Positions 19,169 through 51,746 of a stretch of 64,000 nucleotides of DNA are shown one piece after another. Both the position numbers and the translations under genes were made by a program. The notes under the pieces are model-generated. The model saw nothing but the letters and a program-made list of their open reading frames with translations, was not told where the DNA came from and made no database searches. Within the stretch, counting starts at the first letter, position 1, and every line of letters begins with the position of its first letter. Source of the stretch: an uncultured Eubacteriales bacterium (lineage in GTDB: Bacteria; Bacillota; Sulfobacillia; Fermentithermobacillales; Fermentithermobacillaceae). Location of the stretch: positions 8,592 through 72,591 of the forward strand of contig CAZXLH010000003.1 in the NCBI GenBank assembly GCA_964641455.1, in the 5' to 3' direction.

Positions 19169-19223
19169 GTTTCTGCCTCCTTGCAAGGTAAAACCCTATG
19201 CAAATGCAAAAGCCGAACCGATA

Positions 19224-20228: not shown

Positions 20229-20255
20229 TGAGCGACCTCCTGCGAATCCGGAACA

Positions 20256-20975: not shown

Positions 20976-21113
20976 ATTGCATCTCCCCCTCGTAAAGAAC
21001 CCTAATAAATCTTCCAGGGATTATCAGGCTGTCATACATCCTGATAATCATTCTATACCTATTAGGATTCCCCTGCAGAAAATCAACCTTTCGGGGAAGA
21101 TGAACCAGAGCCT

Positions 21114-22760: not shown

Positions 22761-22908
22761 GAGGCCACCTCCAAAAAATGTATAGGTAAAATTACAACCG
22801 ATAATGTGGTGACCAGAGACGCAGGTTGTTGTGCCTGCGTCTCTATAGCAAATAATTTGGCCGAAGCAAAATCGCCGGTGGCTCACTTACTTCCGGCCGG
22901 GCCATACT

Positions 22909-24057: not shown

Positions 24058-24383
24058 TGGCCGGCCACCTCCTCTTGACACTTACAATCAGCACCATCTT
24101 CATCATCTTCTGAAATGATGGCCAACTCACCCATTTTTATAGGTTTAACAGGGGGCCTGTAACGAGACTGAAGGATTTCAGAAACCGGTTTTCCGAGATA
24201 CCTGGCAATCTCCCCTGCCACCAGCAACCTACAAGTTCTTCCTTGGCATGGCCCCATACCGGCTCTGGTTATGCGTTTGACTTCGTCTAAGGTGGTTGCG
24301 CCTTCTCTAATGGCTTTTCGTACCTCTCCCAATGTCACGTCTTCGCACCGGCAAACAATAATGTCGTTTTCAGCCTTAGCCAT
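24054..24383 (-). CDS. BFD-like [2Fe-2S] subunit, module 2
   Basis: CRCEDV...RAGMGPCQGRTC. Confidence 0.9.
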   Translation of the reverse strand: MAKAENDIIVCRCEDVTLGEVRKAIREGATTLDEVKRITRAGMGPCQGRTCRLLVAGEIARYLGKPVSEILQSRYRPPVKPIKMGELAIISEDDEDGADCKCQEEVAGQ

Positions 24384-24386
24384 GGC

Positions 24387-24896
24387 TCACCCCACCCTTT
24401 CAACAAGTTCAAAGTTTCTTACCGTCATAGACAATTGCTTTGGGGCTCGTACCCAAACAACAGGCGTTCCTTGAGGCTTCTTGCCGGGAAGCACTCTGTG
24501 AACCAACCCTTCCCCTACTTTTTCACCTGCCCTATCCAATAAAGACACTTTATCTCCTTTATCGGGCATGGGAGCGAACTCAAAGGGAATTGCTACCAAG
24601 CATTCAGTATCGCTAAAAGTTTCATCGACAACAAAAATCGCCAACCCCGGGCAAGCAGCTACACACACCCCGCAACCGGTACATTTGCTCCAATCTACCT
24701 CGGGAATATCATTTATTGATTCAAACTGCCGAATAGCACCAAACTTGCAACTATAATGGCATGGGTCGCACGGAATCTCCTGAAAGCATTCAACTACAAC
24801 AAAAGGCCCTTTTTCTCTCCGGGATTTCGGCGGCGTTCTGCTTTCAATTTGCTCTTTTGACGGAACACCGGTGGTCAAAAGAATATCGCTTTTCAC
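24387..24896 (-). CDS. 2x[4Fe-4S] ferredoxin-like subunit, module 2
   Basis: CFQEIPCDPCHYSC and CTGCGVCVAACP motifs. Confidence 0.9.
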   Translation of the reverse strand: MKSDILLTTGVPSKEQIESRTPPKSRREKGPFVVVECFQEIPCDPCHYSCKFGAIRQFESINDIPEVDWSKCTGCGVCVAACPGLAIFVVDETFSDTECLVAIPFEFAPMPDKGDKVSLLDRAGEKVGEGLVHRVLPGKKPQGTPVVWVRAPKQLSMTVRNFELVERVG

Positions 24897-26008
24897 ACGC
24901 TCACCCTCTTTCCCAATTGCTCTCTCAAAACAGCCAACCCTTCCACAATTGGTTTACTGGTCGGGCCCGCTCTCAATTGCTCCAATTCCTCTAAAGACGC
25001 TTTGTGTTTTTGTGAAAATTCGTTTGCAGAAACCTTGCCAAGGCTGTTGGCAACTGCCAACCCTGCAAGCCGCCCTTCTGCCATGGCAGTAGAAGCTTCT
25101 TCTATGCTGGCAACGTCCCCGGCCACATAGATGCCCTCTACCGTTGTTTCCATGTTCTCGTCGTAAAGAGGAACAAAACCGCCAAGGGCTGATACATAAG
25201 TCATTTCAGCTCCTGCCTGCCACAAGAACTCACACAAAGGCGTAAGGCCTGTAGCCAAGCATACAACATCTACTTTCAGGTCTTTTTCAGTGCCCGGGAT
25301 TCCCTGCCACTTGTCATCAAGCTGCCAGATAATCGCACCTTCCACAGAGTGCTTCCCATACGCTTCTTTAATGCTGTGCCTTGTAAGTATGGGAATGCCA
25401 AGCCGCCGGATTTTCGAGGCATGTACCGCATAACCGCCTATTGCCGGCAGAGCTTCAACGAGCGCTGTCACCTTCACACCGGCTTGCACAAGCTGGTAAC
25501 TTACAATCAGGCCGATATTTCCGGACCCTATCATCAATACAGAGTCGCCTGGCTTAACCCCATGAACATTCATGAGGGTCTGCACAGCGCCTGCCCCATA
25601 AACCCCCGGCAAATCGTTGCCCGGGAAAAGAAGCATTTTTTCAGATGCTCCTGTAGCTATCAAGAGTTTGGTGGCTTTGAGTTTCTCAATTCCGTGGGGA
25701 GTCTCAAGAAGCAGTACACCATCATCCTTGTAATACCCTAAAACTTCGGTAGATTTCATAAAGCAAATGTTTTGATTTTGCCCTATATCGTCAGCGAGAT
25801 TATTTGAAATTACAATTCCACGAGTCCCTGCGCTTTTTTCGTGCCACCCAAAGAACTTATGGGTCTGTTTTACCAGCTGCCCACCGATCCCATCGTCCCT
25901 ATCAATAAGGGTGACCTTAACTCCGTAAGAGGCAGCTTCAAGAGCAGCACAGACACCTGCAGGACCCGCTCCTACAATTGCAAGCTCTGTAGTCTTCAAC
26001 AAAGTCAC
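24893..26008 (-). CDS. NAD(P)/FAD-dependent oxidoreductase subunit, module 2
   Basis: GAGPAG, FPGNDLPGVYGAG and GIYVAGD motifs; paralog of 17683..18861. Confidence 0.88.
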   Translation of the reverse strand: MTLLKTTELAIVGAGPAGVCAALEAASYGVKVTLIDRDDGIGGQLVKQTHKFFGWHEKSAGTRGIVISNNLADDIGQNQNICFMKSTEVLGYYKDDGVLLLETPHGIEKLKATKLLIATGASEKMLLFPGNDLPGVYGAGAVQTLMNVHGVKPGDSVLMIGSGNIGLIVSYQLVQAGVKVTALVEALPAIGGYAVHASKIRRLGIPILTRHSIKEAYGKHSVEGAIIWQLDDKWQGIPGTEKDLKVDVVCLATGLTPLCEFLWQAGAEMTYVSALGGFVPLYDENMETTVEGIYVAGDVASIEEASTAMAEGRLAGLAVANSLGKVSANEFSQKHKASLEELEQLRAGPTSKPIVEGLAVLREQLGKRVSV

Positions 26009-26337
26009 TCCTTACTTACCAGGTCAGGCCCAACACCTTTTTGCATCTCAACGTGCATGCCTGCCCTTAGTTTTTCGGTGCACGCCCTAACATTAGGAAC
26101 CCCGTCAACAACCACCAAACACGAAGAACAATTGCCTATTGCACAAAAAAAGCCGCGCGCACGGCCCTCTTTCATGCTCTCATGAAGCACCTTGATGCCT
26201 GAAGCATGAAGAGCGCTTGCTATCGGCTCGCCTTCGTACCCCCAAAGTTCCTTTCCTTCCCAATAGAACTTAACTTTCTTCCTCTCGGTGAAGTCCAGTA
26301 TTGGGTGTTCTCTGATTCTGATTTCCGAAGATTCCAA
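26005..26337 (-). CDS. [2Fe-2S] (Fer2_4) subunit, module 2
   Basis: GEPIASAL...FFCAIGNCSSC...C. Confidence 0.88.
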   Translation of the reverse strand: MESSEIRIREHPILDFTERKKVKFYWEGKELWGYEGEPIASALHASGIKVLHESMKEGRARGFFCAIGNCSSCLVVVDGVPNVRACTEKLRAGMHVEMQKGVGPDLVSKE

Positions 26338-29241: not shown

Positions 29242-31602
29242 CTAAAAAGTTGTATGCTCAGTTCTGGCTATTATCTCATCTTGAAGAGCTTTGGTCAGAT
29301 CGCAGAAATAATCACTGTACCCTGCAACTCTTACTATTAGATCTCTGTACTCCTCAGGGTTTGCCTGGGCATCGCGCAAAGTATCAGCGCTTACCACATT
29401 AAACTGGATATGGTGGGCTCCCATACGGAAATATGCCCTCACCAGATGAGCCAAATTATCTATACCTTCTTGCCCCTCAAGAAGTTGGGGGCTAAATTTC
29501 TGGTTTAACAGGGTGCCGCCTGTTCTTACATGGTCCATCTTGGAACAAGACCTAAGAACGGCTGTAGGCCCGTTCCTGTCTGCACCTTGCACAGGTGAAA
29601 TACCCTCTGACAAAGGCTGCCCTGCAAACCTGCCATCAGGAGTTGCCCCTATTACTGAGCCGAAATATACATGGCATGTAGTAGGTAACATGTTAATTCT
29701 ATAAGTTGCCCCGGTTGGGCTCTTTCGTCCGTTAACTTCATTATGGAAAATATCAAAAACCTGCTGCATAATTTGATCGGCATAATCATTATCATTGCCA
29801 TATTTGGGAGTGCGGTTTAACAAGAGCCGGCGCAATGGTTCTAAGCCTTCAAAATTGCACCTAAGTGCTTCCAGCAACCTGTCCATAGAAACCGTTGCTT
29901 GGTCATATACATGATACTTAACAGCTGACAAACTATCAGTAATGCTTCCTATGCCTACTCCCTGGATATAACGGGTATTGTACCGTGCTCCTCCGGCGTT
30001 GTAGTCTTTTCCGTTCTCAATGCAATCACTTACTGTCACTGAAAGAAAGGGGCTTGGCATATACCTGGCATAGAGTTTCTCTATAACATGATTGCCTCTG
30101 ATTTTAATCTCTGTAAAATACTTCACCTGCTTTTTAAAAGCCTCTATCAGCCGATCAAAACTCTTGAAACTGTTTGCATCTCCGGTTTCAAGCCCCAGTT
30201 TCTTGCCTGTCCTGGGATCAACCCCATTGTTCAGCGTTATTTCGAGTATCTTGGTTAGGTTGAAGTACCCTGTAAGAATATACGCTTCCTTGCCGAATGC
30301 TCCCGTCTCAACACACCCGCTTGTACCGCCTGAGCGAGCATCTTCTATGGTTTTTCCTTGCATAAGCATTTCCTGTATTACGGTATCAGCGTTAAATATA
30401 GAAGGCTGGCCCCAACCTTCCCTTACAATCTCCAATGCCCGCTTCAAAAACTTATCGGGACTCTTCTGGCTAAGCTGTATATTTGAGCTTGGCTGCAAAA
30501 GCCGCATTTCATCTATAACATCAAGAATCAGATAGGTTACATCATTTACCCCATCCTGGCCATCCTTTGTAAGGCCGCCGTTATTTATATTGGCAAAATC
30601 CGTATAGGTTCCGCTTTCTTGCAAAGTGATACCTACCTTAGGCGGCGCAGGTTGGTTATTAAACTTGACCCAGAAACACTGAAGCAGTTCTCGTGCGTCT
30701 TCCCGGGATAAAGTGCTTGCTTCAATTTCTTTTTTGTAAAAAGGATAAAGGTGCTGATCTAATCTTCCGGGGTTAAAAGAATCCCAAGTGTTAAGCTCTG
30801 TTATTACGCCTATGTGAACAAACCAATACATTTGGAGAGCCTCATGAAACGTCTGTGGAGCATGAGCAGGAACATGTTTGCATACCTGCGCTATCTTCAA
30901 AAGTTCTTGCCTGCGCTTCTCATCTTTTGCTTTTTTCGAAAGTTCAAGGGCTTTTTCTGCATGGCGCTCACCGTATCGAATTATGGCGTCACAACAAATC
31001 TTCATAGCCCTTAGTTGGTCATGTTTTTCGTAGGCTTCAGGATCATTGAGAAAATCCAGGTTGCTTATGGCCTCTTCTATATCTTTCTTAAAATCCAAGA
31101 AACCCTTTTGATATATCTTGCCGTCTGCTACCGTGTGGCCAGGGGCCCGCTGCTCCATGAACTCAGTAAATATTCCCGCCTCATAACAATCTTTCCATTC
31201 ATCAGTCATTTCCCGGAATATTTTATGGCGAATGGATCGTTTTTTCCAAAATGGAATTATTTCAGTTTGCTGAACTTTTCTGGCCTCAGCGCCCACTTTG
31301 AAAAAGGTTTTTTCCCGGTCATTAATAACATCGAAATCTTCCATGGTGTGACAACAAAGTTCAGGGTAAGTCGGGGTAGCCTTGGGAGCCGGGCCTCGTT
31401 CTCCGACTATCAGTTCATCTTCACCAATGTATATCTCCTTTTGCTCCATCAACGCCTTAAACGTAAGAGCCCGCAATACAGGCACAGGCACTTTACCCTC
31501 GTACTTCTTGTAAGCCTGTGTAACCAGTTGCGCTCTTTCTATAGAAAGAGCCGGCTGTGCCTCAAGGCTTCTGGTCCTAAGCCTTAATACTCTCTCCCTC
31601 AT
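29242..31602 (-). CDS. hypD: trans-4-hydroxy-L-proline dehydratase (glycyl radical enzyme)
   Basis: Long segments match my recollection of C. difficile HypD: TEFMEQRAPGHT, FNNQPAPPKVGITL.ES.TYTDFANIN, GGTSGCVETG (catalytic Cys), MLPTTCH and RVAGYS (glycyl radical loop). Confidence 0.93.
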   Translation of the reverse strand: MRERVLRLRTRSLEAQPALSIERAQLVTQAYKKYEGKVPVPVLRALTFKALMEQKEIYIGEDELIVGERGPAPKATPTYPELCCHTMEDFDVINDREKTFFKVGAEARKVQQTEIIPFWKKRSIRHKIFREMTDEWKDCYEAGIFTEFMEQRAPGHTVADGKIYQKGFLDFKKDIEEAISNLDFLNDPEAYEKHDQLRAMKICCDAIIRYGERHAEKALELSKKAKDEKRRQELLKIAQVCKHVPAHAPQTFHEALQMYWFVHIGVITELNTWDSFNPGRLDQHLYPFYKKEIEASTLSREDARELLQCFWVKFNNQPAPPKVGITLQESGTYTDFANINNGGLTKDGQDGVNDVTYLILDVIDEMRLLQPSSNIQLSQKSPDKFLKRALEIVREGWGQPSIFNADTVIQEMLMQGKTIEDARSGGTSGCVETGAFGKEAYILTGYFNLTKILEITLNNGVDPRTGKKLGLETGDANSFKSFDRLIEAFKKQVKYFTEIKIRGNHVIEKLYARYMPSPFLSVTVSDCIENGKDYNAGGARYNTRYIQGVGIGSITDSLSAVKYHVYDQATVSMDRLLEALRCNFEGLEPLRRLLLNRTPKYGNDNDYADQIMQQVFDIFHNEVNGRKSPTGATYRINMLPTTCHVYFGSVIGATPDGRFAGQPLSEGISPVQGADRNGPTAVLRSCSKMDHVRTGGTLLNQKFSPQLLEGQEGIDNLAHLVRAYFRMGAHHIQFNVVSADTLRDAQANPEEYRDLIVRVAGYSDYFCDLTKALQDEIIARTEHTTF

Positions 31603-31605
31603 GAC

Positions 31606-32688
31606 TCATCCTCCTATTTTCACAGTAAGCCCGAATTCTTCAAGTTGCTTTTTTACCTTTGACATATCCTCAGTATCAGGCTGAGAAACATCTTTCAGGC
31701 AATAGGCCTTGCCCAGCCTTGTGTACTTATCTGAACCTATATTGTGATACGGCAAAATATTGATTTGCCTGATGTTAAGTTTCGAAAGAAACTTCCCTGT
31801 ATCCCTAATGTTTTGCTCACCATCGTTCATTCCCGGAATTATGGGCATCCGGGCTATTATTAATTGATGAATTTGAGACAACCTGGACAGGTTATCCAAT
31901 ACCAGTTCATTAGAAACGCCTGTGTATTTTGCATGCTTGCCCGGGTCCATGATTTTTACATCATAAAGAAATATGTCTGCCAAAGACGCCACCTGCTCAA
32001 CTACTTTAAACGGGGCATATCCGGAAGTATCGACAGCTGTGTTTATGCCTTCATCCTTGCACCGTAAAAGAAGATCACATAGAAATTGAGGCTGCATAAG
32101 AGGTTCTCCGCCTGAAAAAGTAACGCCGCCTCCTGACTGTTCATAAAATATTCGATCTTTGAGTATCTCGTTTATGACCCAGTCAGAAGTGACCTTCTTA
32201 CCGGCCATTTCTCTTGCCGCTGCCGGGCAAATTTCTGCACACTTCCCGCACACTGTACATTTTTGCCTGTCTGTCACAATTGGGCTTACAGCGCCGGGTC
32301 TATCTTCTGCACCACGCGTATCCTTCGTGTCTGTTGCATGGACTGCGTCCCCTGATTTTGTTTCGCCTACTGTATCTATAGTGATTACTCTGGCTGCATT
32401 AGCCGCTTTATCTGCTGTTTCGTCTGCTATTTGTGTATCAGATTGTTTGTTATCTGTAGATAATGTGAAAACCGGTTCCAAAGCCCTGTTAGGACATACC
32501 GGTATACACATACCGCAACCCAAACATCTCGAGTCAAAAATTACCAATTCCTGTTCTAAACACTGGCCTTCAGGGTTATGGCACCACTTACACCTTAGCG
32601 GGCACCCCTTAAAAAACACAGTAGTCCTTATACCAGGGCCATCATGCACAGAGAATTTCTGGATATTGAATATGGTTCCCTTGTTCAT
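31606..32688 (-). CDS. Glycyl-radical activating enzyme for HypD (radical SAM with ferredoxin-like insert)
   Basis: HDGPGIRTTVFFKGCPLRCKWCHNPE, two [4Fe-4S] insert motifs, GGVTFSGGEPL; abuts hypD. Start taken at the ATG at 32688. Confidence 0.93.
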   Translation of the reverse strand: MNKGTIFNIQKFSVHDGPGIRTTVFFKGCPLRCKWCHNPEGQCLEQELVIFDSRCLGCGMCIPVCPNRALEPVFTLSTDNKQSDTQIADETADKAANAARVITIDTVGETKSGDAVHATDTKDTRGAEDRPGAVSPIVTDRQKCTVCGKCAEICPAAAREMAGKKVTSDWVINEILKDRIFYEQSGGGVTFSGGEPLMQPQFLCDLLLRCKDEGINTAVDTSGYAPFKVVEQVASLADIFLYDVKIMDPGKHAKYTGVSNELVLDNLSRLSQIHQLIIARMPIIPGMNDGEQNIRDTGKFLSKLNIRQINILPYHNIGSDKYTRLGKAYCLKDVSQPDTEDMSKVKKQLEEFGLTVKIGG

Positions 32689-32805
32689 CACACCGCCCCA
32701 CAGCCTAATTTGTTTGTCTGGTAGCATGTTGTCTGACATTTATCATTATATTACATTCTACAAAGTTATTAATTTTCCCTCTCTATCAAACACTAAACTC
32801 CTCAG

Positions 32806-32834
32806 ATTATACAATTAGGCCAATATCAAGACAA
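32806..32834 (-). promoter_or_regulatory. sigmaA promoter of the activase-hypD operon
   Basis: Minus strand TTGTCT-N17-TATAAT with an extended TG. Confidence 0.7.
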
Positions 32835-32841
32835 ACAACGT

Positions 32842-32867
32842 GAGGGCGTCTTAACAAGGACGCCCTC
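32842..32867 (-). terminator. Hairpin ending the DUF6754 cassette
   Basis: GAGGGCGTC-N8-GACGCCCTC, about 120 bp after the 32988 stop, followed by a T-rich stretch on the minus strand. Confidence 0.55.
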
Positions 32868-32987: not shown

Positions 32988-33605
32988 CTACTTCACTATT
33001 TCTAACCAGTCAACGATAAGGAATTGCATCCTTGCAAGAAACAAAGATACACGGGCCATAACAGTTGTTCCAAACGCAGCGCCAAAAGCTATCATCATAG
33101 TGTACCTGCCTATCCAGGAACCATATTTAAGCGGGCCTTTTGGTTCGATCGTAAACAAAAAGAACGATAACGTACATATCACGCCTACCAGAAGAAGCGA
33201 AGCATTTATGGCCTCGGCACCGGTTGGGTTTGAAAGAGGCTTTATGGTAGCAATTACCTGGTCGATCAGCATGGGCTTCCACGTCTTGGTCAATACAACC
33301 CCTGCGCCTACACCGACAGTAAACGATATAGGGTATCTTGATAACCACTGAAGGCGCTTGCTAAACCTTGTATACATCAAAAGCCCCAAAATAATCGGAA
33401 CTATATAGTTCCACTTGCCCTTTTCAAGAATGTCTATCATTACCGCAGGCTTTATTCTGTTGCCGAACGTCATTGCAACAGCATACCCGGCTGTGGTACC
33501 CACAAAGATAGTTTCGGCAAAATAGTAAACTTCGCTCTCTTTGAAGATAATGCTGTAAAGAGCAAGGGTTAAAAACGCAGCAATCCAGTTTCCGATGTTA
33601 GCCAT
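32988..33605 (-). CDS. Uncharacterised polytopic membrane protein (DUF6754 cassette gene 4)
   Basis: About 6 hydrophobic segments, a G...GY motif and a C-terminal FGAAFG..VMAR motif; overlaps gene 3. Confidence 0.8.
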   Translation of the reverse strand: MANIGNWIAAFLTLALYSIIFKESEVYYFAETIFVGTTAGYAVAMTFGNRIKPAVMIDILEKGKWNYIVPIILGLLMYTRFSKRLQWLSRYPISFTVGVGAGVVLTKTWKPMLIDQVIATIKPLSNPTGAEAINASLLLVGVICTLSFFLFTIEPKGPLKYGSWIGRYTMMIAFGAAFGTTVMARVSLFLARMQFLIVDWLEIVK

Positions 33606-34440
33606 TACCTCTTGCCTCCTTTCTTTTGGAGAGGAAGTACTGAACGTTGCCGACTATCACAAAAAGTACAATTAGCAAGTGAGTTAGGCTCTGAGCATCC
33701 ATACCTACAGTGGCAGTACCGGGTGTATTGATCAATTGTTCATATTCGGCGGCCCCTTTCATGCCTGCGAGCATGCCGGTAAGCTGGCCTGATTGAAACA
33801 AAGGCATGCTTTCAGGGATACTCACAGCAAAACACGCCCCGGTAACCGGAACTCCCAATGGAACCCCAATCATCTTTACGTAAACTGAAAGCCCCTCGCC
33901 GAGTGACCCAATTGAGGCAGCCAAAGCTACATCCTTCAGAGATTTCACTTCTTGCATAAGCGGCATGGCTTCTAGCCGTTTTCCATAAAAGTCAACTCCG
34001 TTTGCCGCATTGATGATATCAACACCCATGGCTTCAAAAAACACGTTGCCCGAACCCTTGTAACCCAAATTAACCCAATCTTCACCGTATTTCTTATCAG
34101 GGAAGTCAGGCAATACAACATCCATAGCCCTTTCAAGCAAACTCCCTGACTCTGCTGTAATCCCTGCAGAAAGCACCTTGATATCCCTGGAAAAACAATG
34201 TCTGATTAAGGCAATCGCTGCAGGTTCCATTTCAGCCAAGGAAGATGCATAATAGTCAAAACCGATATAGACCGTTTTTCCGGATGGAATTGTATCGACG
34301 AAATCATATAGCACTTGGGTTTCCTTGCTAATTGGAATGGGCAGCCCGATAGGAGAAATAATGGCATATGCTACACACATAATAATCAAAATATATAGAA
34401 CATAATCCATCCGCCTGTCATTGGTTCCAGCCGTGTTCAT
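33598..34440 (-). CDS. Uncharacterised membrane protein with a soluble alpha/beta domain (cassette gene 3)
   Basis: N-terminal TM helix, soluble domain (DWVNLGY), LAGMKGAAEYE, and a C-terminal MDAQS..HL TM helix. Confidence 0.8.
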   Translation of the reverse strand: MNTAGTNDRRMDYVLYILIIMCVAYAIISPIGLPIPISKETQVLYDFVDTIPSGKTVYIGFDYYASSLAEMEPAAIALIRHCFSRDIKVLSAGITAESGSLLERAMDVVLPDFPDKKYGEDWVNLGYKGSGNVFFEAMGVDIINAANGVDFYGKRLEAMPLMQEVKSLKDVALAASIGSLGEGLSVYVKMIGVPLGVPVTGACFAVSIPESMPLFQSGQLTGMLAGMKGAAEYEQLINTPGTATVGMDAQSLTHLLIVLFVIVGNVQYFLSKRKEARGNG

Positions 34441-34459
34441 AACCTTTACCTCCCTTTGC

Positions 34460-35072
34460 TTAATCGGCGCCCAAATGCCTGCGCTCTATCCCTAGCATGA
34501 TTCTAAAAGCCTGGGATACAGCACCTATGGAAGCACCCAAAATTATGCCCCTCATGCCTGCGGTATTGGGAACATCCAAGATCCATCCGGAAATCTTGGG
34601 AATGGTTTTTGATATGGTTGCACCTATCGGCGCTTGCCCTAACATGACTATGACACCTGCAACAAGCAGCAAAGTAGCTTCGAAGTTTTTTGCACGGAAC
34701 GCTCTGTAAGAAGCGGAACCAATGTAAAACACCAATATCGAATACATTGTTCCATCCAACGGCACAATTACATTATTATAGATATAGCCAAGCCCCGGCC
34801 CTTGATGGCCTCCGAAAAGCCCTACACCTAAGGTTACATAGACGGAAAAGAAGGATACTCCTCCAATACCGGCCGCGTTTCAAGGAAATATTTTTGGTAT
34901 GGATACGCGTGAGGTTAATTACACCTAACATACATCCGACTGCACTTACTATAAGGAACCAATTATCCAAAGTAGACTTGACGGTAACGGCTACGGGAAT
35001 TGTAAAGTAATATGCCATGGCATAAATTATGCCGGCACAAAAGGTTATGGCTAACGGTAATTCACGTCTCAA
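34460..35072 (-). pseudogene. Membrane protein split by a frameshift near 34841-34852 (cassette gene 2)
   Basis: ORFs 34776..35072 and 34460..34765 join into one coherent membrane protein if the frame shifts at CTTTTCCGTC: ...WRSILLF / VYVTLGVGLFGGHQGPGLGYIYNNVIVPLDGTMYSIL... Confidence 0.75.
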
Positions 35073-35089
35073 GAGTACTCCTCCTTTCG

Positions 35090-35866
35090 TCAGATTTTAA
35101 GCACATTGACCAAAGTTTCGCTTCCGGTAAACATAAATATCGCACCTATAGCCGTTATCACAATCATTGCCACTTTCACAAAATCAGCCACAATCAAGCT
35201 TCCTATCAGTACAGGCTCCTCTGAGATATAAGCCGAAGCAGCATAAATTTCTTCGCCAATAAGACAATAGTCACACGCCGCCACGAAAAACGGGATTTGA
35301 TGCGTGTTCGCCGTACCGGCGATTTGTATTGCTCCAATCTCATAGCCTGTTTGAGCAAAAATGAGAGATTCTGCCCAAAAAGCACCTATGGCAATATTGG
35401 TGGCCACTCTTTCCCTGCGCATGATCCCTGTTACGCCTGTCGCATAACCGAACTGGTTATCGGTAAGAAATCGTACATCATCAGGATTAAAAGCATCCGG
35501 TTTGTTCTCAGTAAGATAAGCGTTCTTGATTATTTCCTCAGATAAGGTATGCACCAAAACCTTGTTGTTGCTCATGATAAGCGGAACATCATTTCTGGCA
35601 CATTTCCTGGCGACATAGTCCAAAATAGCCATTGAGGCCATAGTCTGAGCCTCATTAACATCGCTGATTCCCGGGGAAAAGTGCACAGGCCTACCCATCT
35701 CCGTTGCCCGGCCAATGGCCTCATCCAGGGCATCCAAACCACTCACTCGCCTGATAGACGGCAGTTTCCGGCCCTTTCTGGCACGGCCGATATAAAATAC
35801 GAGGGATATACAGAAAATCAACTGAGTCACAAAAGCCATGGTTTGTCCCTTAGCAATCAACGCCAC
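35090..35866 (-). CDS. DUF6754-domain membrane protein (cassette gene 1)
   Basis: IRRVSGLDALDEAIGRATEMGRPVHF, QIPFFVAACDYCLIGEEIYAASAY; strong GGAGG RBS. Confidence 0.75.
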   Translation of the reverse strand: MALIAKGQTMAFVTQLIFCISLVFYIGRARKGRKLPSIRRVSGLDALDEAIGRATEMGRPVHFSPGISDVNEAQTMASMAILDYVARKCARNDVPLIMSNNKVLVHTLSEEIIKNAYLTENKPDAFNPDDVRFLTDNQFGYATGVTGIMRRERVATNIAIGAFWAESLIFAQTGYEIGAIQIAGTANTHQIPFFVAACDYCLIGEEIYAASAYISEEPVLIGSLIVADFVKVAMIVITAIGAIFMFTGSETLVNVLKI

Positions 35867-36425
35867 TATAATCCTCCTCTCACATTAATTAACAAGGCAA
35901 CCGCTTGCTATCCACGACACTTCTCAGCACAATCTGTACACAGACAAGTCACGGAGATATATTTGAAACCAATAAGACTGCACGGTAAATAAAGCAAACA
36001 GAAACTTGTAAGCGATTCCCCCCTTTCGATTTGCTTAAGCGGATCACACCGACGCAAAACCAAGGGCCTGAGATTGTGGTATGTTTATCGCTGCAGGTGG
36101 TTGTAGCATAATAGGAATGACTGTTTTTACCATTCTGCGGAGCTATATAACATTCCTGCCAGGACTTAATAAATATTCAGCTTAGTTTGAAGATATTTGC
36201 CTGATCAGAAAATGTTACAATATGGTTGGCCTGACGTATCATATATAGGCCTGCTCTGTGCATCAACATGTTGCAACCAGGTTCACCATGTTTGCAGAAG
36301 CAGCCACTAAGCCCGAACCTGAAACGCAACAAGGTTCAAGGGGAGGAATCACCGTGAAATTAAGATACATGTCTCTACAGCAAGAAGGGGTAAATCCCAT
36401 AACGGATTTTGGCCGGAAAAGGATA

Positions 36426-38066
36426 GTGTCAAAACGCCCCTTGCAAATTGCTGTAGTTTCTTTTCTGTTTGTTTTGTGCTTTTTCTTATTCCCCCGTGTC
36501 GCCTTTGGAGCCTTTAGATACTATATTCCAAAGCAGCAAGATCAACTTACCGTTAATGAAGACAGTTCTGTTGGATTAATACGGTATTTTGAGTTTGCAG
36601 TAGACCAAAGTTCTACTGATTCAGGCACCGAGATTTGGATAGGGCTTCCCACTTCAAGAACTCAGGTATCGTCGGTAACTGATGATAAGGGGAATAACGT
36701 TACTTTTAAAACCCAAATATCAGGCGGTGATTACACCCTGATTTTGACCGGGTTTGACGCCATAGAACCGGGAAAGGCTAAAGGGTTTACAGTTGAAGCG
36801 GTTATCCCAGAGTTCTTGTTTCCGGATTCTGAAAATGAAGGGTACGCCACAATGAAGTATATACCCGGGTGGTGGTCATCTCAAGTTAAAGTGCAAGATA
36901 TTGCAGTAATCTTACCGGGTGGCGTGGAAAAAGACGAGATAAAAACGGGAACCGGCGAATGGGACGGAATCGCCCAAACCGAGTCAGGGGCTTATGTGGT
37001 TACATGGCGCTTTGAAAACCTGGGAGCAGGCGAAAAAGTATCCGTCAACATTGGGATTCCCGATACGTACGTGACACTGCCGGTGAAGGAAGAACCTGTA
37101 CCGGTAATTCCTCCCGAGCCACTTCCTTCTCACCGGGTACCCGGCATTGGGCATTCAGGTAATTTTGGCGCCATCTTTGGCTTATTTGCAGTAGCTGTCA
37201 TTGTGATTGTGGCAATAGGCATAGCCACCGGAATGAAAGAAGATTACTCACCGCCCCGGGTAAGCATGGAAGGGATAGGCGTCAACGAAACCCTGTCTCC
37301 TGTTGAAGTTTCCATACTTTTGAGGCAACCGCCTGAGAAAACCATGACACTGCTTTTGTTCTCACTTATTAAGAAAGGAATAGTAAGAGCATATTCAACT
37401 GAACCCTTAAGACTGTCTGTTCATTACGAAAGGGACTTATCAGAAGTTGAAGAACTCTTCTTGAAAGCCATTGACAGAAATACAGGAGAACTTGATCAAA
37501 CAAAACTCACTTACGTTTTCAGATTCATGGCTGCTTCTGTAAATGAGAAAATGAAGCCTTACTGCCGAAAAGACACAGAAGCTTTCTACCGCGGGCACAT
37601 AGCGAATCTTTGGGCTGAGGTTAGGGCGGCAAACACACCCGAGTTGAAACTTGAGTCTTTTGACAAGAATCTTCTGTGGCTCATTCAAGACGAAATTAAA
37701 CTTAAGGAATCTGAAAGCATTTTTGATTCCGAACAGAAAAAAGCAGCCTGGTGGCCCAATTGGTGGCTCATGGGCTTTCCTTACGGAAGAGGATATTTCG
37801 GCATTCACTGGTGGCCTATGGCAATGTATCACTCGTTTACAGGCATCTCAAGCGGCATAATACATGGCAACGAAGAAAAGTACAGGAAAATTACTGAGTC
37901 AGTGTTTACCCCGGCCAGGCCTGTGCCTGCCAGGAGCATTTTCGGCGGCAAAAGCGGCGGAACAAGCCATCACGGAGGATTTACCCCTCCCAGTTGTGCA
38001 TGTGCTTGCGCCTGTGTTTCCTGTGCCTGTGCATGTGCTTGTGCAGGCGGTGGGGGATGCACTTAG
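36426..38066 (+). CDS. Signal-peptide, single-pass membrane protein (DUF2207-like) with a C-terminal Cys-Ala repeat tail
   Basis: Start taken at the GTG at 36426 after GGAAAAGG. Order of regions: hydrophobic signal ending VAFG-A, beta-rich ectodomain, Pro-rich linker, TM helix FGAIFGLFAVAVIVIVAIGI, cytoplasmic domain, and tail SCACACACVSCACACACAGGGGCT. Confidence 0.85.
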   Translation: MSKRPLQIAVVSFLFVLCFFLFPRVAFGAFRYYIPKQQDQLTVNEDSSVGLIRYFEFAVDQSSTDSGTEIWIGLPTSRTQVSSVTDDKGNNVTFKTQISGGDYTLILTGFDAIEPGKAKGFTVEAVIPEFLFPDSENEGYATMKYIPGWWSSQVKVQDIAVILPGGVEKDEIKTGTGEWDGIAQTESGAYVVTWRFENLGAGEKVSVNIGIPDTYVTLPVKEEPVPVIPPEPLPSHRVPGIGHSGNFGAIFGLFAVAVIVIVAIGIATGMKEDYSPPRVSMEGIGVNETLSPVEVSILLRQPPEKTMTLLLFSLIKKGIVRAYSTEPLRLSVHYERDLSEVEELFLKAIDRNTGELDQTKLTYVFRFMAASVNEKMKPYCRKDTEAFYRGHIANLWAEVRAANTPELKLESFDKNLLWLIQDEIKLKESESIFDSEQKKAAWWPNWWLMGFPYGRGYFGIHWWPMAMYHSFTGISSGIIHGNEEKYRKITESVFTPARPVPARSIFGGKSGGTSHHGGFTPPSCACACACVSCACACACAGGGGCT

Positions 38067-38520: not shown

Positions 38521-39987
38521 TTACCTGTAGATGCTGGCTCCGGGCCTGCGTTCCAGGGGACAACCTCCGCCACATAGGTCGAGTTCCTCGCATGAGATAC
38601 ATTCCTCAGGAAGCACAGGGAAATCAGGGTGTGTGACAACCCCCGGAATTCTCCGTTTTCTCAACGCCTGAGCCAATCGATGATTCCAAATATCCGGAAA
38701 CTGATCTGTAAGCGCATTGCCTATAGATTTGTAATATGACTGGCACGGCATCACGTTGGCGTCAGGTTCAATGGCCATAACAGTGCTTGCGGCCGAACAC
38801 GTCTTAACACCCAGGGCAAGATCCACCGGGTTCAATTCCTTGTAACAAGTCGGCGTATACCATATAAACGGGAAATCTTCATCTGCCGATACCTTAATCA
38901 CTTCGTCTAAAAGATCCTTTAGCTCCTCAGGTTCAAGCCCTTCATGTGACACTCCGCGGCCTGAACGTATCAAAGCATTGAGGCCGAATTTTTTCACGCC
39001 AAGGGTTTTTATGAATCTTATTGTCTCAATAACCGAATCTTTATTATCCCTGGTTATGGTGGTATTAGTGGTTGTGTATATCCTTGACGCTGCATTCCTT
39101 ATGCCGTCTACCGTTTCAGCCCATGCACCCTCCACCCCTACCATCTTGTCGTGAACCTCAGGGCTGAGTGATTCAAGTGTGACCTGGGCAAAATCCAACC
39201 CGGCTTCGGCCAATTCCGCAACTCTTGGCCCGGTAAGAAGCCTGCCATTGGTGATAAGGCCGGTAATAAGGCCGCTGTCTTCAGCATGTTGCACCAAAAC
39301 ATCAATACCATCTCTTAACAGCGGTTCCCCGCCTGTAAATACTACTGTAGGAACTCCCCAATCAGATAACCTGTCGATAATTTGCTTCCACGAGTTTATG
39401 GAAATCTCCCGTGTACTGTGAGGCCCGCCTGCATAGCAATGGCTGCAATTGTTCTGGCACCTATAGGTGAGAATCAGATCGCATCTGTATGGAGCGGAAA
39501 GTTCAACTGACAACGGATCTATGCGCCTTACTTCGAATTCCGAAAACGGGCACATGCCTCCTTCAGCAACAGCAATCACCGAACCCCAGAGCCTTTCCCA
39601 ATCAGGTGCAGCCCGGCTCTCTTCCACCTTAAACTTGCGCCTTATTCTCCTTATCACCCTGGGAGCGAGCGCCGTGCCAACCTCCCGCGGATTGGAAATA
39701 TCAATTGAGTTCAAACTTACATCAGGGGTTTTACCCAAGATTCTGGCTAGCAGGCCCGGGGAAGCCGCTGCGCCTGTGCCTACTCCAAATCCTTCTCCGG
39801 ATTCTTCCCGCCCGCTCCCGGCAATGGCCAGCCTTTCGTATTCATCAAAGAAAGCCTCAAAATAAGCCCTGGCTATATTATCAAGAAACAAAGCAGCCTG
39901 AGCATTAATTATCAGAACTCCGGTTTTGTCAGCCTCTCTTCGCAAGTGGAGTTTCAAATCACCTATCCGGATCTTTAGCATAAACAC
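38521..39987 (-). CDS. Radical SAM/SPASM-domain protein with a PqqD/RRE-like N-terminal domain
   Basis: CQNNCSHC, FTGGEPLLR, ITNG, and SPASM Cys motifs CSAA...IEPDANVMPC and CISCEELDLCGGGCP; about 150-aa N-terminal extension with three beta strands then helices. Confidence 0.9.
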   Translation of the reverse strand: MFMLKIRIGDLKLHLRREADKTGVLIINAQAALFLDNIARAYFEAFFDEYERLAIAGSGREESGEGFGVGTGAAASPGLLARILGKTPDVSLNSIDISNPREVGTALAPRVIRRIRRKFKVEESRAAPDWERLWGSVIAVAEGGMCPFSEFEVRRIDPLSVELSAPYRCDLILTYRCQNNCSHCYAGGPHSTREISINSWKQIIDRLSDWGVPTVVFTGGEPLLRDGIDVLVQHAEDSGLITGLITNGRLLTGPRVAELAEAGLDFAQVTLESLSPEVHDKMVGVEGAWAETVDGIRNAASRIYTTTNTTITRDNKDSVIETIRFIKTLGVKKFGLNALIRSGRGVSHEGLEPEELKDLLDEVIKVSADEDFPFIWYTPTCYKELNPVDLALGVKTCSAASTVMAIEPDANVMPCQSYYKSIGNALTDQFPDIWNHRLAQALRKRRIPGVVTHPDFPVLPEECISCEELDLCGGGCPLERRPGASIYR

Positions 39988-41003: not shown

Positions 41004-41178
41004 CGGCAGCAAACGATAAAACCCAAGAAATAATTTTACTTTAGCACCAAAAACATTATAATTAATTGCAGTTGATTCAGATAAGGCTTTGTGGCCCACT
41101 GCATCATTGATGACCAAAGTGCCGGTAAAGCCAGGAATGGCCTTTTAGCCATAGTTGGCACTGAAAGCGGGGCTCGGC

Positions 41179-42264
41179 ATGGCTGATACCATCCTACAGC
41201 TAATTCATATTGAAAAGAGTTTTGCCAATTCAAAGGTTCTTAACGGCATTGACCTTAGGGTCCGCAAAGGCGAGTTCCTTACCCTATTGGGCCCTTCAGG
41301 TTGCGGCAAAACAACCACGCTGCGCATAATTGCAGGCCTGGAGACACCTGACAGAGGACGCGTCCTAATTGAAGGCAAAGATGTAACCTACGAAGAACCG
41401 AACAAACGAAATGTTAACATGGTATTCCAGAATTACGCCCTGTTTCCGCACATGAATGTAGAACAAAACATCGGATACAGCCTACGGCTACGACGAGTTG
41501 ATAAGGCAAGCATCAGAAAAACCGTTCAAGATGCACTGGAACTTGTACAACTTGAGGACTTTGAAAAACGGATGCCAAATGAACTGTCAGGCGGCCAGCA
41601 ACAACGTGTAGCTATTGCAAGGGCAATCGTCAACCAGCCTGCGCTTTTGCTGTTAGACGAACCTCTTGGTGCTCTGGACCTTCAGTTACGGCGCCAAATG
41701 CAAACAGAACTCAAACGACTGCAAAAAAGATTAGGCGTTACCTTTGTATACATTACCCACGATCAAGAAGAAGCCTTGAACATGTCAGATCGCATTGCAG
41801 TCATGCGCAATGGCAAGTTTGAGCAAATCGATACACCGTCAGAAGTATATGATCGGCCCAAAACAAGTTATGTAGCCAGATTTGTCGGTTCTGCCAACAT
41901 CCTCAGAGGCAAAGCCTCCAACGTGAATAATCAACTGGTTGAGTTTCAGAATGAAAATGGAACCACGCTGGTCTCTACACAAGGGGCACACATTGCATCC
42001 GGGCAGACTGTTACCATTGCTGTACGCGGTGAAATAATAGAATTGGCTCCGGACGTTCCCATGCATTCTGCGGGCCTTCGGGCCATAGTAAAAGAAAAGC
42101 GCTTTGCAGGAGGGGTACTCCAGGTCATAGTAGCCCTGGCTGACGGCAGCGAACTGGTTTCCAAGTACCATGGTATCGATCTTCCCTTTGCTCCTGGCGA
42201 TCGGGTTATTGCAACCTGGCAACCGGACGATGCAGTTCTTGTTGATCTGGAGGATACAGCATGA
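41179..42264 (+). CDS. potA: Spermidine/putrescine ABC transporter ATPase
   Basis: GPSGCGKT, LSGGQQQRVA, LLLDEPLGALD motifs and a TOBE tail. Start taken at the ATG at 41179. Confidence 0.9.
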   Translation: MADTILQLIHIEKSFANSKVLNGIDLRVRKGEFLTLLGPSGCGKTTTLRIIAGLETPDRGRVLIEGKDVTYEEPNKRNVNMVFQNYALFPHMNVEQNIGYSLRLRRVDKASIRKTVQDALELVQLEDFEKRMPNELSGGQQQRVAIARAIVNQPALLLLDEPLGALDLQLRRQMQTELKRLQKRLGVTFVYITHDQEEALNMSDRIAVMRNGKFEQIDTPSEVYDRPKTSYVARFVGSANILRGKASNVNNQLVEFQNENGTTLVSTQGAHIASGQTVTIAVRGEIIELAPDVPMHSAGLRAIVKEKRFAGGVLQVIVALADGSELVSKYHGIDLPFAPGDRVIATWQPDDAVLVDLEDTA

Positions 42265-43178
42265 AACAATCTTCTACCATTCCCGTGATCTCCGGGAAAC
42301 CCAGGCCAAAGATCAATGCCAAAACCAATAAGAAGGTAGATGCGGCGTTTTTGACCGTAATGCCCCTTTATGTTTTTACACTGCTTTTCGTAGCAGGCCC
42401 GTTAGTTTACATGGTTATACTCAGTTTTTTGAAGCGGGCTGAAATATGGGGGATTGTACACGAGTTCACCTTGGATAACTACGCCAATATTTTGGAACCT
42501 ATTTATTTGAAAACCTTCTGGGAATCTCTCAAACTGGCCGGGCTTACCACTTTGTTGGTCGCTTTAACCGGCTATCCCTTTGGTTATTTCATGGCGAAAC
42601 TGACAGCAAAGTGGAAGCAACGGGTTATGTTATTGCTCATGATTCCTTTTTGGACCAGTTCCCTTATACGCCTGTACGGTTGGATCATCATTTTTCGGGC
42701 TAACGGTACCCTGGACCGGTTGCTCATGGGGCTTAAGATCACCGGTGCCCCTCTCAAGTTACTATACACCTACGCTGCTGTAGCCGTTGGCATGGTCTAC
42801 GCTCTGGTTCCGTTCATGATCTTTTCTGTCTACTCAAGCGCCGAAAAACTGGACTGGCAGTTAGTCGAAGCGGCACGGGATCTTGGCGCTACCCGCTTTC
42901 AGGCCTTTTGGACCATATCATTCCGGCTGACTCTGCCAGGGCTTCTGTCCGGTGTTGTTCTTACGTTCATTCCGTCAATGGGCTTGTTTTTCATCGCAGA
43001 CATTCTAGGCGGCAATAAGGTTGTGCTTATAGGCAATCTAATACACGAACAACTCATGAAGGCACGCAACTGGCCCTTTGCAGCTGCTCTCTCGGTTGTG
43101 CTCATGATCCTTACAAGCCTAATGATTGGCTTGTACCGAAAAATCTCCGGGGTAAAGGAGTTGGAAGGCCTGTTATGA
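42261..43178 (+). CDS. potB: Spermidine/putrescine ABC permease
   Basis: IPFWTSSLIRLYGW, EAARDLGA and NWPFAAALS motifs. Confidence 0.9.
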   Translation: MKQSSTIPVISGKPRPKINAKTNKKVDAAFLTVMPLYVFTLLFVAGPLVYMVILSFLKRAEIWGIVHEFTLDNYANILEPIYLKTFWESLKLAGLTTLLVALTGYPFGYFMAKLTAKWKQRVMLLLMIPFWTSSLIRLYGWIIIFRANGTLDRLLMGLKITGAPLKLLYTYAAVAVGMVYALVPFMIFSVYSSAEKLDWQLVEAARDLGATRFQAFWTISFRLTLPGLLSGVVLTFIPSMGLFFIADILGGNKVVLIGNLIHEQLMKARNWPFAAALSVVLMILTSLMIGLYRKISGVKELEGLL

Positions 43179-43245
43179 ATAACCTGAAAAGTATTTCCGG
43201 AATACCCTGGTTTCCAAAACCAGCTGCCTTGACGGAGGGGCCGGT

Positions 43246-44088
43246 ATGAAGAACCGGACAAAGATCCCCAACATCTATCTTGGCTTGATACTCGTCATAA
43301 TGTATATACCTATTTTGCTGGTAATCATATACTCCTTCAATCAAAGCAAGATCAGTTCGGTATGGGGTGGATTTTCCCTGAAATGGTATGAGGAGTTATT
43401 CAGGGATAAGGACTTGCTTGAGGCTATGGTAAACAGCCTTGTTCTGGCGGCCATAAGCAGCATTTTGGCTGCCATAATCGGAACTTTGGCAGCAATAGGT
43501 ATGCCAAAGGCTAAACTGATCAGCAAGAGTGTTATCGAATATATTTCCACGTTGCCAATCATGATCCCAGAGATTGTCCTGGGCATGGTTTTCCTGGTAT
43601 TTTTCTCACTGCTCAGATTGCCCTTTGGCATGATTACTCTTACCATCGCCCATACATCGTTTTGCATTCCCTATGTTTATATGCTGGTAAAAGCAAGGTT
43701 AGTGGGTATTGACAAAAGTTATGCAGAAGCCGCTAAAGATCTTGGAGCCAATGAATGGAACGTATTTTTCGATATTACACTGCCGCTCATCCTGCCGGCC
43801 ATTGTCTCAGGCATGCTTCTTTCTTTTGCCATGAGCCTGGATGATGTTGTCATTAGTGTTTTCGTAACCGGCGTACATACGAATACACTTCCACTGAAAA
43901 TATACACCCAGCTCAAAACCGGGGTAACACCCAAAATCAACGCACTGTGTACAATCATGTTCGGGGCAACTTTGCTTGTGCTGTTGCTGGCCTCATGGGC
44001 CAGCAAACAAACTTCAAAAAGAACCAACAGGAGGGGAAAACATGAAGAGAGTCCTGAGAACCGCTTTGGTATTGGCGTTGTTCGGTAG
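43246..44088 (+). CDS. potC: Spermidine/putrescine ABC permease
   Basis: YIPIL..IIYSFN, PEIVLG, EAAKDLGA and SLDDVVIS motifs. Confidence 0.9.
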   Translation: MKNRTKIPNIYLGLILVIMYIPILLVIIYSFNQSKISSVWGGFSLKWYEELFRDKDLLEAMVNSLVLAAISSILAAIIGTLAAIGMPKAKLISKSVIEYISTLPIMIPEIVLGMVFLVFFSLLRLPFGMITLTIAHTSFCIPYVYMLVKARLVGIDKSYAEAAKDLGANEWNVFFDITLPLILPAIVSGMLLSFAMSLDDVVISVFVTGVHTNTLPLKIYTQLKTGVTPKINALCTIMFGATLLVLLLASWASKQTSKRTNRRGKHEESPENRFGIGVVR

Positions 44089-45103
44089 CATCTTTGCCGG
44101 CTGCAATCCTGAAAGTGCCAAGGGCAAAGAAACTAAGTTGAACCTGTTTACCTGGGAAGGAATGTTCCCCCAGGACGTGCTCGATGGATTCACCGCTGAA
44201 ACAGGTATCGCAATCAACTACAGCAACTTCGACTACAACGAAACTATGCTTGCTAAACTTGAAGCAGCCAAAGGCGGGGATTATGACCTGGTTATCGCTG
44301 ACGACTACATTCTCCAAACAGTCATCGACCGTGGCCTGGCGCAAAAACTTGATCGCTCAAAGATTCCGAACTTTGAACATATTAACCCTGTATACCAAGG
44401 ACAGTTCTATGATCCTGACGATGAATACACAGCGCCCTACGGTGCCGGCGTCCAGACCATCGTTTATGACCCCAACGAGGTTCAAATCGAGATCACCGGA
44501 TACGCTGATCTTTGGAACGAATCTCTTAAAGATAATCTGGGAACTATCGCAAATTACCGTGTCATTATCGGCATGGCACTTAAAGTCCTAGGCGAGAGTT
44601 ATAATACTGAAGATTTGGACACTATCAAGGCTGCAGGCGAAAAACTGCTTGAAATTGCACCAAATATCCGCATAATCAAAGACGACAATCTTCAGGATGA
44701 TCTTCTGTCAGGGGAAATCGGGGTTGCAGTGATGTACACATCCCAGGTAACAACAGCAGTGCTGGCCAATCCTGATTTGAAGATTGTTTTCCCTGAAGAA
44801 GGAATCGGATTTGGTATCATGGCCAACTTCATTCCGTCCAATGCGCCTAACCCGGATGCAGCCCATAAGTTCATTGATTTCATCTTGCAGCCTGAAATAT
44901 CTGCCCGGTGTTTTGAATACCTGGGATACTACTGCACCAACAAAGCGGCAGAAGACCTAATAAATCCGGATTTCAAAGATATGCTTACACTGCCTTCTGA
45001 CCTGAGCGGCGATATGGAAATGATTCAAACCGTCGGAGCTGAAGCCGAAGAGATGCACGCAAAAATGTGGACCGAATTCAAAGTTGCCTGCGGGCAATCA
45101 TAA
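44042..45103 (+). CDS. potD: Spermidine/putrescine-binding lipoprotein
   Basis: Lipobox FAGC, LNLFTWEG and the PEEG motif. Start taken at the ATG at 44042. Confidence 0.88.
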   Translation: MKRVLRTALVLALFGSIFAGCNPESAKGKETKLNLFTWEGMFPQDVLDGFTAETGIAINYSNFDYNETMLAKLEAAKGGDYDLVIADDYILQTVIDRGLAQKLDRSKIPNFEHINPVYQGQFYDPDDEYTAPYGAGVQTIVYDPNEVQIEITGYADLWNESLKDNLGTIANYRVIIGMALKVLGESYNTEDLDTIKAAGEKLLEIAPNIRIIKDDNLQDDLLSGEIGVAVMYTSQVTTAVLANPDLKIVFPEEGIGFGIMANFIPSNAPNPDAAHKFIDFILQPEISARCFEYLGYYCTNKAAEDLINPDFKDMLTLPSDLSGDMEMIQTVGAEAEEMHAKMWTEFKVACGQS

Positions 45104-47775: not shown

Positions 47776-47782
47776 CTACCTC

Positions 47783-49778: not shown

Positions 49779-49787
49779 ATCCCTCCC

Positions 49788-50687: not shown

Positions 50688-50688
50688 C

Positions 50689-51651: not shown

Positions 51652-51679
51652 GGTCTCTCCCCTATTTCGTTCTTCGTCG

Positions 51680-51719
51680 GTGAATGGGCTGTCACAAGTA
51701 CTTGTAACAGCCCGTCCAC
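51680..51719. other. Intercistronic stem-loop between the binding-protein and permease genes
   Basis: GTGAATGGGCTGTCACAAG / TTGTAACAGCCCGTCCAC inverted repeat; such hairpins commonly stabilise binding-protein mRNA. Confidence 0.55.
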
Positions 51720-51746
51720 TACAAACAAAGAAATATCTCTACAGCA

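Follow-up and report, generated by a model that had tools for sequence, protein, structure and literature searches.

The closest described relative of the membrane system considered here is the Pfam family DUF6754 (PF20539), which is catalogued in bacteria and archaea. Its entry covers one of the system's four subunits and assigns no function, and a literature search found no paper mentioning DUF6754 or PF20539. A second described group that bears on the system comprises the accessory proteins GlmL/MutL and Or-4 (PF13941, NF040745, and NF040744), which serve B12-dependent glutamate mutase and ornithine aminomutase; a literature search on GlmL-type ATPases and transporters yielded nothing relevant. 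We analyzed a 64,000-nucleotide stretch of DNA (the window) on contig CAZXLH010000003.1 of the genome of an uncultured Eubacteriales bacterium (assembly GCA_964641455.1). At positions 32988 to 35866 on its minus strand, next to the genes for trans-4-hydroxy-L-proline (Hyp) dehydratase, HypD, and its activase, are four closely spaced genes, g1 to g4. As judged from sequence comparisons, these genes are most likely one copy of a widespread, unstudied inner-membrane complex.

We see about an even chance that the quartet, together with an ATPase, represents substrate-specific uptake modules that share a motor, with the window copy dedicated to peptides containing Hyp or proline (Pro) or to Hyp itself. 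From the patterns described below we infer transport, its direction, the substrate, the topology, and the coupling to the ATPase. In the proposed mechanism, the variable outer Rossmann-like domain of g3 would be a tethered substrate receptor, the polytopic g2 and g4 would form the translocation path, and the conserved inner Rossmann-like domain of g1 would dock a common motor. That motor would consist of a GlmL-like actin-fold ATPase and a barrel-sandwich partner, encoded elsewhere in the genome in four modules. The cassette may have multiplied to 4-18 copies per genome in the family, each for a different peptide, amide, or amino-acid derivative, and the window copy would have supplied the neighboring HypD pathway by importing free Hyp or peptides that contain Hyp/Pro. 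An earlier note on this DNA had suggested a multisubunit importer. That remains the best-supported reading, from gene context, but the link to HypD is facultative.

Composition and distribution of the cassette

The product of g1 is a full-length member of DUF6754: the PF20539 profile covers it at positions 7-254 of 257 with 322.8 bits, against a gathering cut-off of 27 (E value of 1.6e-96). Pfam and NCBIfam scans gave no family match for g2, g3, or g4. Spacers of 17 nt and 19 nt separate g2 from g1 and g3, respectively; the ends of g3 and g4 overlap by 8 nt. A cassette was defined operationally by the order g1-g2-g3-g4, a common direction, and tight packing. The window copy conforms to this definition but does not have four intact reading frames because of a deletion in g2. 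The earlier description of four tightly packed membrane genes was therefore exact in packing and coordinates, but the second gene is split by a 5-nt deletion. Its statement that the genes have no ATPase, substrate-binding protein (SBP), or permease motif agrees with Pfam/NCBIfam, PDB profiles, and Foldseek, none of which returned anything specific.

The window alone could not show that the cassette is one of many paralogous cassettes in its genome (2.54 Mb), which has PF20539 matches at 20 places. Searches with the four proteins (phmmer) found 17 cassettes, all in the order g1-g2-g3-g4. At one locus (G000:C8, 4936-11302) two complete cassettes stand in tandem with a mutual identity of 85-94%, indicating a recent duplication; an ApbE gene is located upstream. 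Copies of g3 were present in all 36 genomes of the order (1-18 per genome; 4-18 within the family), the relatives compared carrying the names Candidatus Fermentithermobacillaceae or Bacillota metagenome-assembled genomes (MAGs). The quartet was also found in WOR-3, Stahlbacteria, Eisenbacteria, Zixibacteria, Cloacimonadota, Ignavibacteria, Armatimonadota, Bathyarchaeota, and others, and a g3 profile retrieved 5,624 cluster representatives among 1.84 billion proteins. An unbroken g1-g2-g3-g4 run was seen in 33 of 80 cross-phylum loci, and no conflicting order was seen; gene calls in this set were crude, and many of the remaining loci were short or miscalled.

AlphaFold2 models built from alignments of 59-67 sequences had high predicted local distance difference test (pLDDT) values for g1 (92.8) and g3 (93.5). 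The two models are alike, each consisting of a transmembrane (TM) helix, a parallel alpha/beta domain of 5-6 strands, a short helix with the late motif, and a second TM helix. This bears out the layout that had been read from the sequence, and the late motifs noticed then, IGEEIYAASAY and LAGMKGAAEY, are both present, conserved in their families, and located in the helix that precedes the C-terminal TM helix. Sequence comparison did not establish g1 and g3 as paralogues (no BLASTP match; hhalign probability of 12.8%), so that only the common architecture stands. Paralogy of g2 and g4 was rejected (hhalign probability of 0.9%). PDB sequence profiles gave no match for any of the four proteins. 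Foldseek against the PDB returned only generic Rossmann-like matches, headed for g3 by TtuA (E value of 5.7e-4, TM score of 0.28) and for g1 by LOG-like, DprA, and MoCo-carrier proteins (E value of 0.02, TMt up to 0.55). SBP structures aligned to the g3 model at TM scores of only 0.17-0.18. Comparison of the g1 and g3 models with known folds therefore revealed no transporter-like fold; the earlier note had proposed such a comparison for the four-subunit complex.

The charge distribution suggests that the soluble domains of g1 and g3 are on opposite sides of the membrane. Family members of g1 have a net charge of +4.1 directly after the first TM helix, and g3 proteins are positively charged at both termini. 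Under the positive-inside rule, we infer a cytoplasmic domain for g1 and, for g3, an outward-facing domain with both termini in the cytoplasm. Among the paralogues within the genome, conservation is highest in the inner domain of g1 (48% identity) and lowest in the outer domain of g3 (31-33%).

A candidate motor encoded outside the cassette

The lack of an ATPase among the four genes turned out to be misleading, because a GlmL-like ATPase and a barrel-sandwich partner co-occur with the cassette and are in the same operon in other phyla. The genome studied here has five PF13941 genes, one short (461 aa) and four long (596-631 aa; 331-415 bits to PF13941). Each long ATPase gene adjoins a gene for a barrel-sandwich-hybrid partner, one of which has an in-frame TAG. 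This last partner gene (G000:C16:37851-39170) is downstream of the fourth long ATPase (C16:39178-41073), directly upstream of which is an S58 (DmpA-like) peptidase gene.

Although the long ATPases match PF13941, they differ from GlmL and Or-4 in several respects. The only long copy scanned against NCBIfam, the 596-aa C9 ATPase, scored far below the cut-offs of GlmL (236.3 versus 475) and Or-4 (219.1 versus 600) and also below that of TIGR01319 (175.8 versus 204). The long copies are located beside partner genes, and the partner co-occurs with DUF6754. Neighbors of the long ATPases include the barrel-sandwich partners, an FtsX-type ABC (ATP-binding cassette) system, and the S58 peptidase; no mutase-like genes were seen among these partly annotated neighbors. 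The short copy adjoins unannotated genes of 749 and 122 aa of aminomutase-like appearance and looks like a genuine mutase helper. The annotation "GlmL/methylaspartate mutase accessory protein" is probably wrong for the long ATPases.

Partner and DUF6754 genes were both present in 17 of 251 genomes of the phylum and both missing from 231, with the partner alone in 1 and DUF6754 alone in 2 (Fisher P = 3e-23, not corrected for phylogeny). Of the two genomes with DUF6754 alone, one is incomplete (78%) and the other shows no more than a weak, partial match. The ATPase or its partner was found within 10 kb of the cassette in 16 of the 38 cross-phylum loci with full flanks, and the motor directly abuts the cassette in 11 of 80 loci. 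Some loci have one motor followed by 2-3 cassettes. Both MutL-partner-g1-g4 and g1-g4-MutL-partner operons were seen, including in single-copy genomes. At another locus (G015:C6, 2955-11229), a long GlmL-like ATPase and its partner precede the HypD activase gene by about 2 kb, and the intervening DNA holds no cassette.

Gene neighborhoods and the association with HypD

Genes for hydrolases acting on peptides and amides are frequent neighbors of the cassettes in this genome: Amidohydro_3 (four), M24 (two), M20 (two), S9/DPP-IV (three), M81, creatininase, and a beta-lactamase-family hydrolase. They are often less than 100 nt away, on the same strand, and accompanied by GntR/UTRA, RpiR, or PucR regulators (Table 1). 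Fourteen of the 59 genes of these hydrolase families are within 3 kb of a cassette, compared with 3.1% of all genes (odds ratio of 11.6), and the associated P value of 1e-9 is optimistic because the families were chosen after they had been seen. All 17 neighboring hydrolases checked (9 in this genome and 8 in relatives) lack a signal peptide; therefore, their substrates must be imported. The genome has about 5 Opp-type systems, compared with 17 cassettes. The survey of DUF6754 neighborhoods that had been suggested as a check thus gave a mixed result, with peptidase/amidohydrolase enrichment in this genome but heterogeneous neighbors across phyla. In several diderm phyla, the quartet is located between gcvT-H-PA-PB/LplA and TonB-dependent receptor genes. 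A recurrent block at five such loci (L114, L126, L131, L146, and L175, from Eisenbacteria, Aegiribacteria, Fermentibacteraceae, and unclassified MAGs) reads gcvT-gcvH-gcvPA-gcvPB-LplA, a MutL-like ATPase, its partner, and g1-g4, followed by two genes of about 250 and 900 aa, the latter TonB-dependent receptor-like (CarboxypepD_reg plus Plug).

Nothing was found in favor of a sensor, which the earlier note had offered as an alternative to an importer. No kinase, HTH, GGDEF, methyl-accepting chemotaxis protein (MCP), or other output domain was seen in the window cassette or among about 45 annotated neighbors of the 17 copies, where only one-component regulators were present.

A riboswitch-controlled operon was considered as proof of transport and rejected. 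On contig C18 (2738-9086, minus strand), a thiamine pyrophosphate (TPP) riboswitch (63 bits) and a 12-bp terminator control thiD-thiM-thiE-HAD, with a cassette 29 nt beyond. The arrangement is not conserved in relatives, g1 of this cassette has no N-terminal TM helix, and a 68%-identical orthologue (G018) is located away from thi genes. The juxtaposition is therefore recent and is weak evidence. A second TPP riboswitch (G000:C1:81725-81833) precedes genes of 186 and 277 aa; this pair recurs after the riboswitch in most of the family's genomes and probably represents the conventional thiamine transporter or kinase pair.

In the window, the genes downstream of HypD encode a ferredoxin, AOR, two DAO/2Fe-2S/flavoprotein sets, two DUF885 proteins, a proline-racemase-family protein, GntR and PucR regulators, an M24 prolidase-like protein, and an S9 peptidase. 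Within this Pro/Hyp cluster, the two paralogous sets of DAO, Fer2_4 (2Fe-2S), and Pyr_redox_2 genes and the two DUF885 genes (14438-26337) look like duplicated proline/opine-dehydrogenase-type modules. HypD was present in 21 of the 36 genomes of the order, and a cassette adjoins the HypD operon in 5 of these 21. In this genome (G000) and in G016, a window-type cassette is codirectional with HypD and the entire block is syntenic. In G027, G028, and G029, of a third genus, two cassettes are near HypD, and the closer one is divergent from the activase gene. All four subunits of this closer cassette share 52-66% identity with those of the C17 cassette, which in the genome studied here is followed by prolidase and DPP-IV genes. 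Thus, two nonorthologous cassette types are found beside HypD, which ties the cassette to Pro/Hyp catabolism in separate settings. Window-type relatives in other genera (59-75% identity) are located beside S10-like, DPP-IV, S9, M20, and C69 peptidase genes. The suggested Hyp/Pro link is therefore recurrent, with two cassette types and with Pro-peptidases, but it is facultative. A conventional ABC importer suspected upstream of HypD in genus g6 was rejected, as the genes there are Tad-pilus-like (MinD/ParA-type ATPase) and leucyl-tRNA synthetase genes.

Around the window cassette itself, an Rfam scan detected no riboswitch or other element, and apart from the ribosome-binding site the upstream region showed no conservation with G016. 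Farther upstream, a plus-strand gene (36258-38066) encodes a 602-aa membrane protein of no family with the C-terminal tail GGFTPPSCACACACVSCACACACAGGGGCT, which is identical in the G016 orthologue, the rest being only about 71% identical. Convergent with it is a gene for a 488-aa radical-SAM/SPASM protein (38521-39987, minus strand), and the pair is syntenic beside HypD in G005, G006, G008, and G016. These proteins could be a maturase and its Cys-rich substrate.

Table 1. Features of the window on its own coordinates, followed by gene neighborhoods of further cassettes of the same genome
Feature	Coordinates	Strand	Remarks
g1, DUF6754 subunit	35090..35866	-	258 aa; N-terminal TM helix, conserved Rossmann-like domain (predicted cytoplasmic), C-terminal TM helix
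g2, N-terminal part	34776..35072	-	native frame to ~34847, then out-of-frame residues and stop
g2, frameshift site	34841..34854	-	5 nt of the orthologues missing between 34847 and 34846
g2, C-terminal part, shifted frame	34460..34846	-	listed open reading frame 34765-34460 begins at GTG 34765; three-frame translation
g3	33598..34440	-	280 aa; N-terminal TM helix, variable Rossmann-like domain (predicted extracytoplasmic), long C-terminal TM helix; no Pfam family
g4	32988..33605	-	polytopic membrane subunit, 205 aa, no family
Terminator-like hairpin, g4 to HypD activase gene	32842..32867	-	9-bp stem, 7 G-C pairs, weak T tract
Promoter-like site, HypD activase/HypD operon	32806..32834	-	TTGTCT-17-TATAAT, 10/12 matches
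Glycyl-radical activase	31606-32739	-	Pfam match (radical SAM); directly upstream of HypD
HypD, trans-4-hydroxy-L-proline dehydratase	29242-31602	-	NF043068, 1451 bits vs cut-off 1100
Pot-like ABC system	41155-45103		upstream of cassette
Opp-type ABC importer and PepX	45619-53345	-	SBP_bac_5, two permeases, two ATPases, then S15 X-Pro dipeptidyl-peptidase
C5 cassette			Amidohydro_3 41 nt upstream and Amidohydro_3 212 nt downstream; GntR/UTRA
C12 cassette			GntR/UTRA upstream; M24 62 nt downstream, then OCD/mu-crystallin gene, M20
C17 cassette			M24 prolidase-like gene, then DPP-IV
C29a cassette			M81/MlrC 78 nt downstream; Amidohydro_3
C29b cassette			S9, beta-lactamase-family hydrolase, Amidohydro_3
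C50 cassette			RpiR regulator; creatininase 13 nt upstream
C72 cassette			M20 18 nt downstream; PucR

Alternative readings and comparison with known transporters

Several observations weigh against uptake modules that share a motor and against a Hyp/Pro role for the window copy. PDB profiles and Foldseek revealed no resemblance to a transporter or binding protein, in sequence or in fold, and the soluble part of g3 forms one Rossmann-like domain rather than the two lobes of an SBP. Immediate neighbors across phyla are heterogeneous and include housekeeping genes. None of the cassettes in this genome abuts a motor module, the nearest being about 12 kb away. In the window, a hairpin and a separate promoter-like site divide the cassette from the HypD genes, as the earlier note had recognized. 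Its further statement that the Pro/Hyp cluster has no conventional transporter is true inside the cluster, but Pot-like and Opp-type ABC systems are located 5-10 kb upstream, the latter a conventional operon for uptake and cleavage of proline peptides about 10 kb from the cassette. No cassette adjoins HypD in 16 of the 21 HypD genomes, same-genus relatives included. These same-genus genomes show the order rSAM-u602-HypDAE-HypD, and no cassette remnants were found between u602 and HypDAE. Window-type orthologues with 88% identity in G028 and G029 are located away from HypD.

The frameshift in g2 is a further point of this kind. The 5-nt deletion (alignment with the G016 and G028 orthologues: CCTTCTTT-----TCCGTC) is missing in orthologues, and the window copy is therefore probably inactive, the inactivation probably being recent. 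The downstream part is recognizably g2, as a phmmer search with it recovered the g2 gene of every other cassette. It is possible, and we hold this only tentatively, that the frameshift arose in assembly or does no harm and that in this organism the window cassette still works with the HypD pathway. The assembly is a draft of 176 contigs, and g1, g3, g4, and both halves of g2 are otherwise free of defects, with 84-92% identity to the G016 orthologue. However, the deletion sits in nonrepetitive sequence and is not a homopolymer slip, and g2 is intact in all 16 other copies in the genome (open reading frames of 202-221 aa) and in all 13 close orthologues examined. Furthermore, the absence of a cassette at the HypD site in same-genus relatives may reflect loss there or gain in this genome.

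An unlikely alternative is that the quartet is a machine driven by the actin-fold ATPase for a purpose other than import, such as envelope mechanotransmission, MacB/FtsEX/Lol-like export or extraction, or signaling, and that the catabolic neighbors are incidental. Two Rossmann-like domains on opposite membrane faces would suit such a machine, as would the failure to find a transporter-like fold, the heterogeneity of neighbors across phyla, and the thiamine-operon juxtaposition that turned out to be a recent accident. However, this alternative leaves unexplained why a small genome would maintain 4-18 diverged copies beside cytoplasmic hydrolases and one-component regulators. Nor does it fit with the rapid divergence of the g3 outer domain or with the finding that no kinase, HTH, or other output domain is in or beside any copy. 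Still less probable is a stand-alone secondary, ion-gradient-driven transporter, with the ATPase module acting in regulation or assembly or having no functional connection to it: 17 cassettes versus 4 motor modules with none adjacent to a cassette, 61 of 80 cross-phylum loci with no motor within reach, and several invariant acidic residues in g1 are in its favor, but it is contradicted by the nearly perfect match between partner and DUF6754 presence (3 discordant genomes), by motor-cassette operons in genomes that include single-copy ones, and by the g1 cytoplasmic domain being the best conserved, as expected of a common docking surface.

Importers that share an actin-fold motor would constitute a transport system unrelated to any known class, drawing its energy from an ATPase with an actin/sugar-kinase fold and not from an ion gradient or a P-loop ATPase. 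The g3 family, with more than 5,600 sequence clusters, is distributed over many, mostly uncultured bacterial phyla and some archaea. The neighbors of the 17 diverged copies in this one genome (prolidase, DPP-IV, HypD, amidohydrolases, and creatininase) point to concrete candidate substrates. To our knowledge, it has not been described how HypD is supplied by uptake, and such an importer would fill a gap in anaerobic hydroxyproline/collagen-peptide metabolism.

Binding-protein-dependent ABC importers whose receptor domains are fused or tethered to the membrane, such as Opp/Dpp, resemble the proposed system in the logic of receptor, path, and ATPase and in being placed by regulators and cytoplasmic catabolic enzymes. 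They differ in that the cassette has neither an ABC ATPase nor an ABC membrane domain (BPD_transp_1 or another) and lacks a two-lobed SBP, and its candidate motor has an actin/sugar-kinase fold and no P-loop. A search for ABC ATPases (Walker A/B and signature; PF00005) gave no match in the cassette genes and readily found the true ABC genes of the window, and neither g2 nor g4 had a Pfam or PDB-profile match to an ABC-type membrane domain. Tripartite ATP-independent periplasmic (TRAP) transporters and tripartite tricarboxylate transporters (TTT) are likewise multisubunit uptake systems without an ABC ATPase that are often present in high copy number, but their signatures (DctP/Q/M and TctA/B/C) were not found in the cassette with Pfam or NCBIfam, and the subunit architecture is different.

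Group II energy-coupling factor (ECF) transporters offer a likeness in that 17 substrate modules outnumber 4 motors encoded elsewhere and, in other phyla, one motor is followed by 2-3 cassettes. We consider this likeness limited to the logic of a shared module, because Pfam and NCBIfam detected no homology to EcfT, EcfA, or S components, and each cassette consists of four subunits and is predicted to place large soluble domains on either face of the membrane. We propose, as a conjecture that we regard as somewhat doubtful, that the quartet, the long ATPase, and its partner may together make up a new importer class that is primary active, depends on a receptor domain, and has no kinship with ABC, ECF, TRAP, or phosphotransferase (PTS) systems. 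Its radiation in Fermentithermobacillaceae-like Bacillota would then have produced as many as 18 substrate-specific cassettes operating on 3-4 motors, as the dominant route of uptake of peptides and amino-acid derivatives, including Hyp/Pro peptides for HypD.

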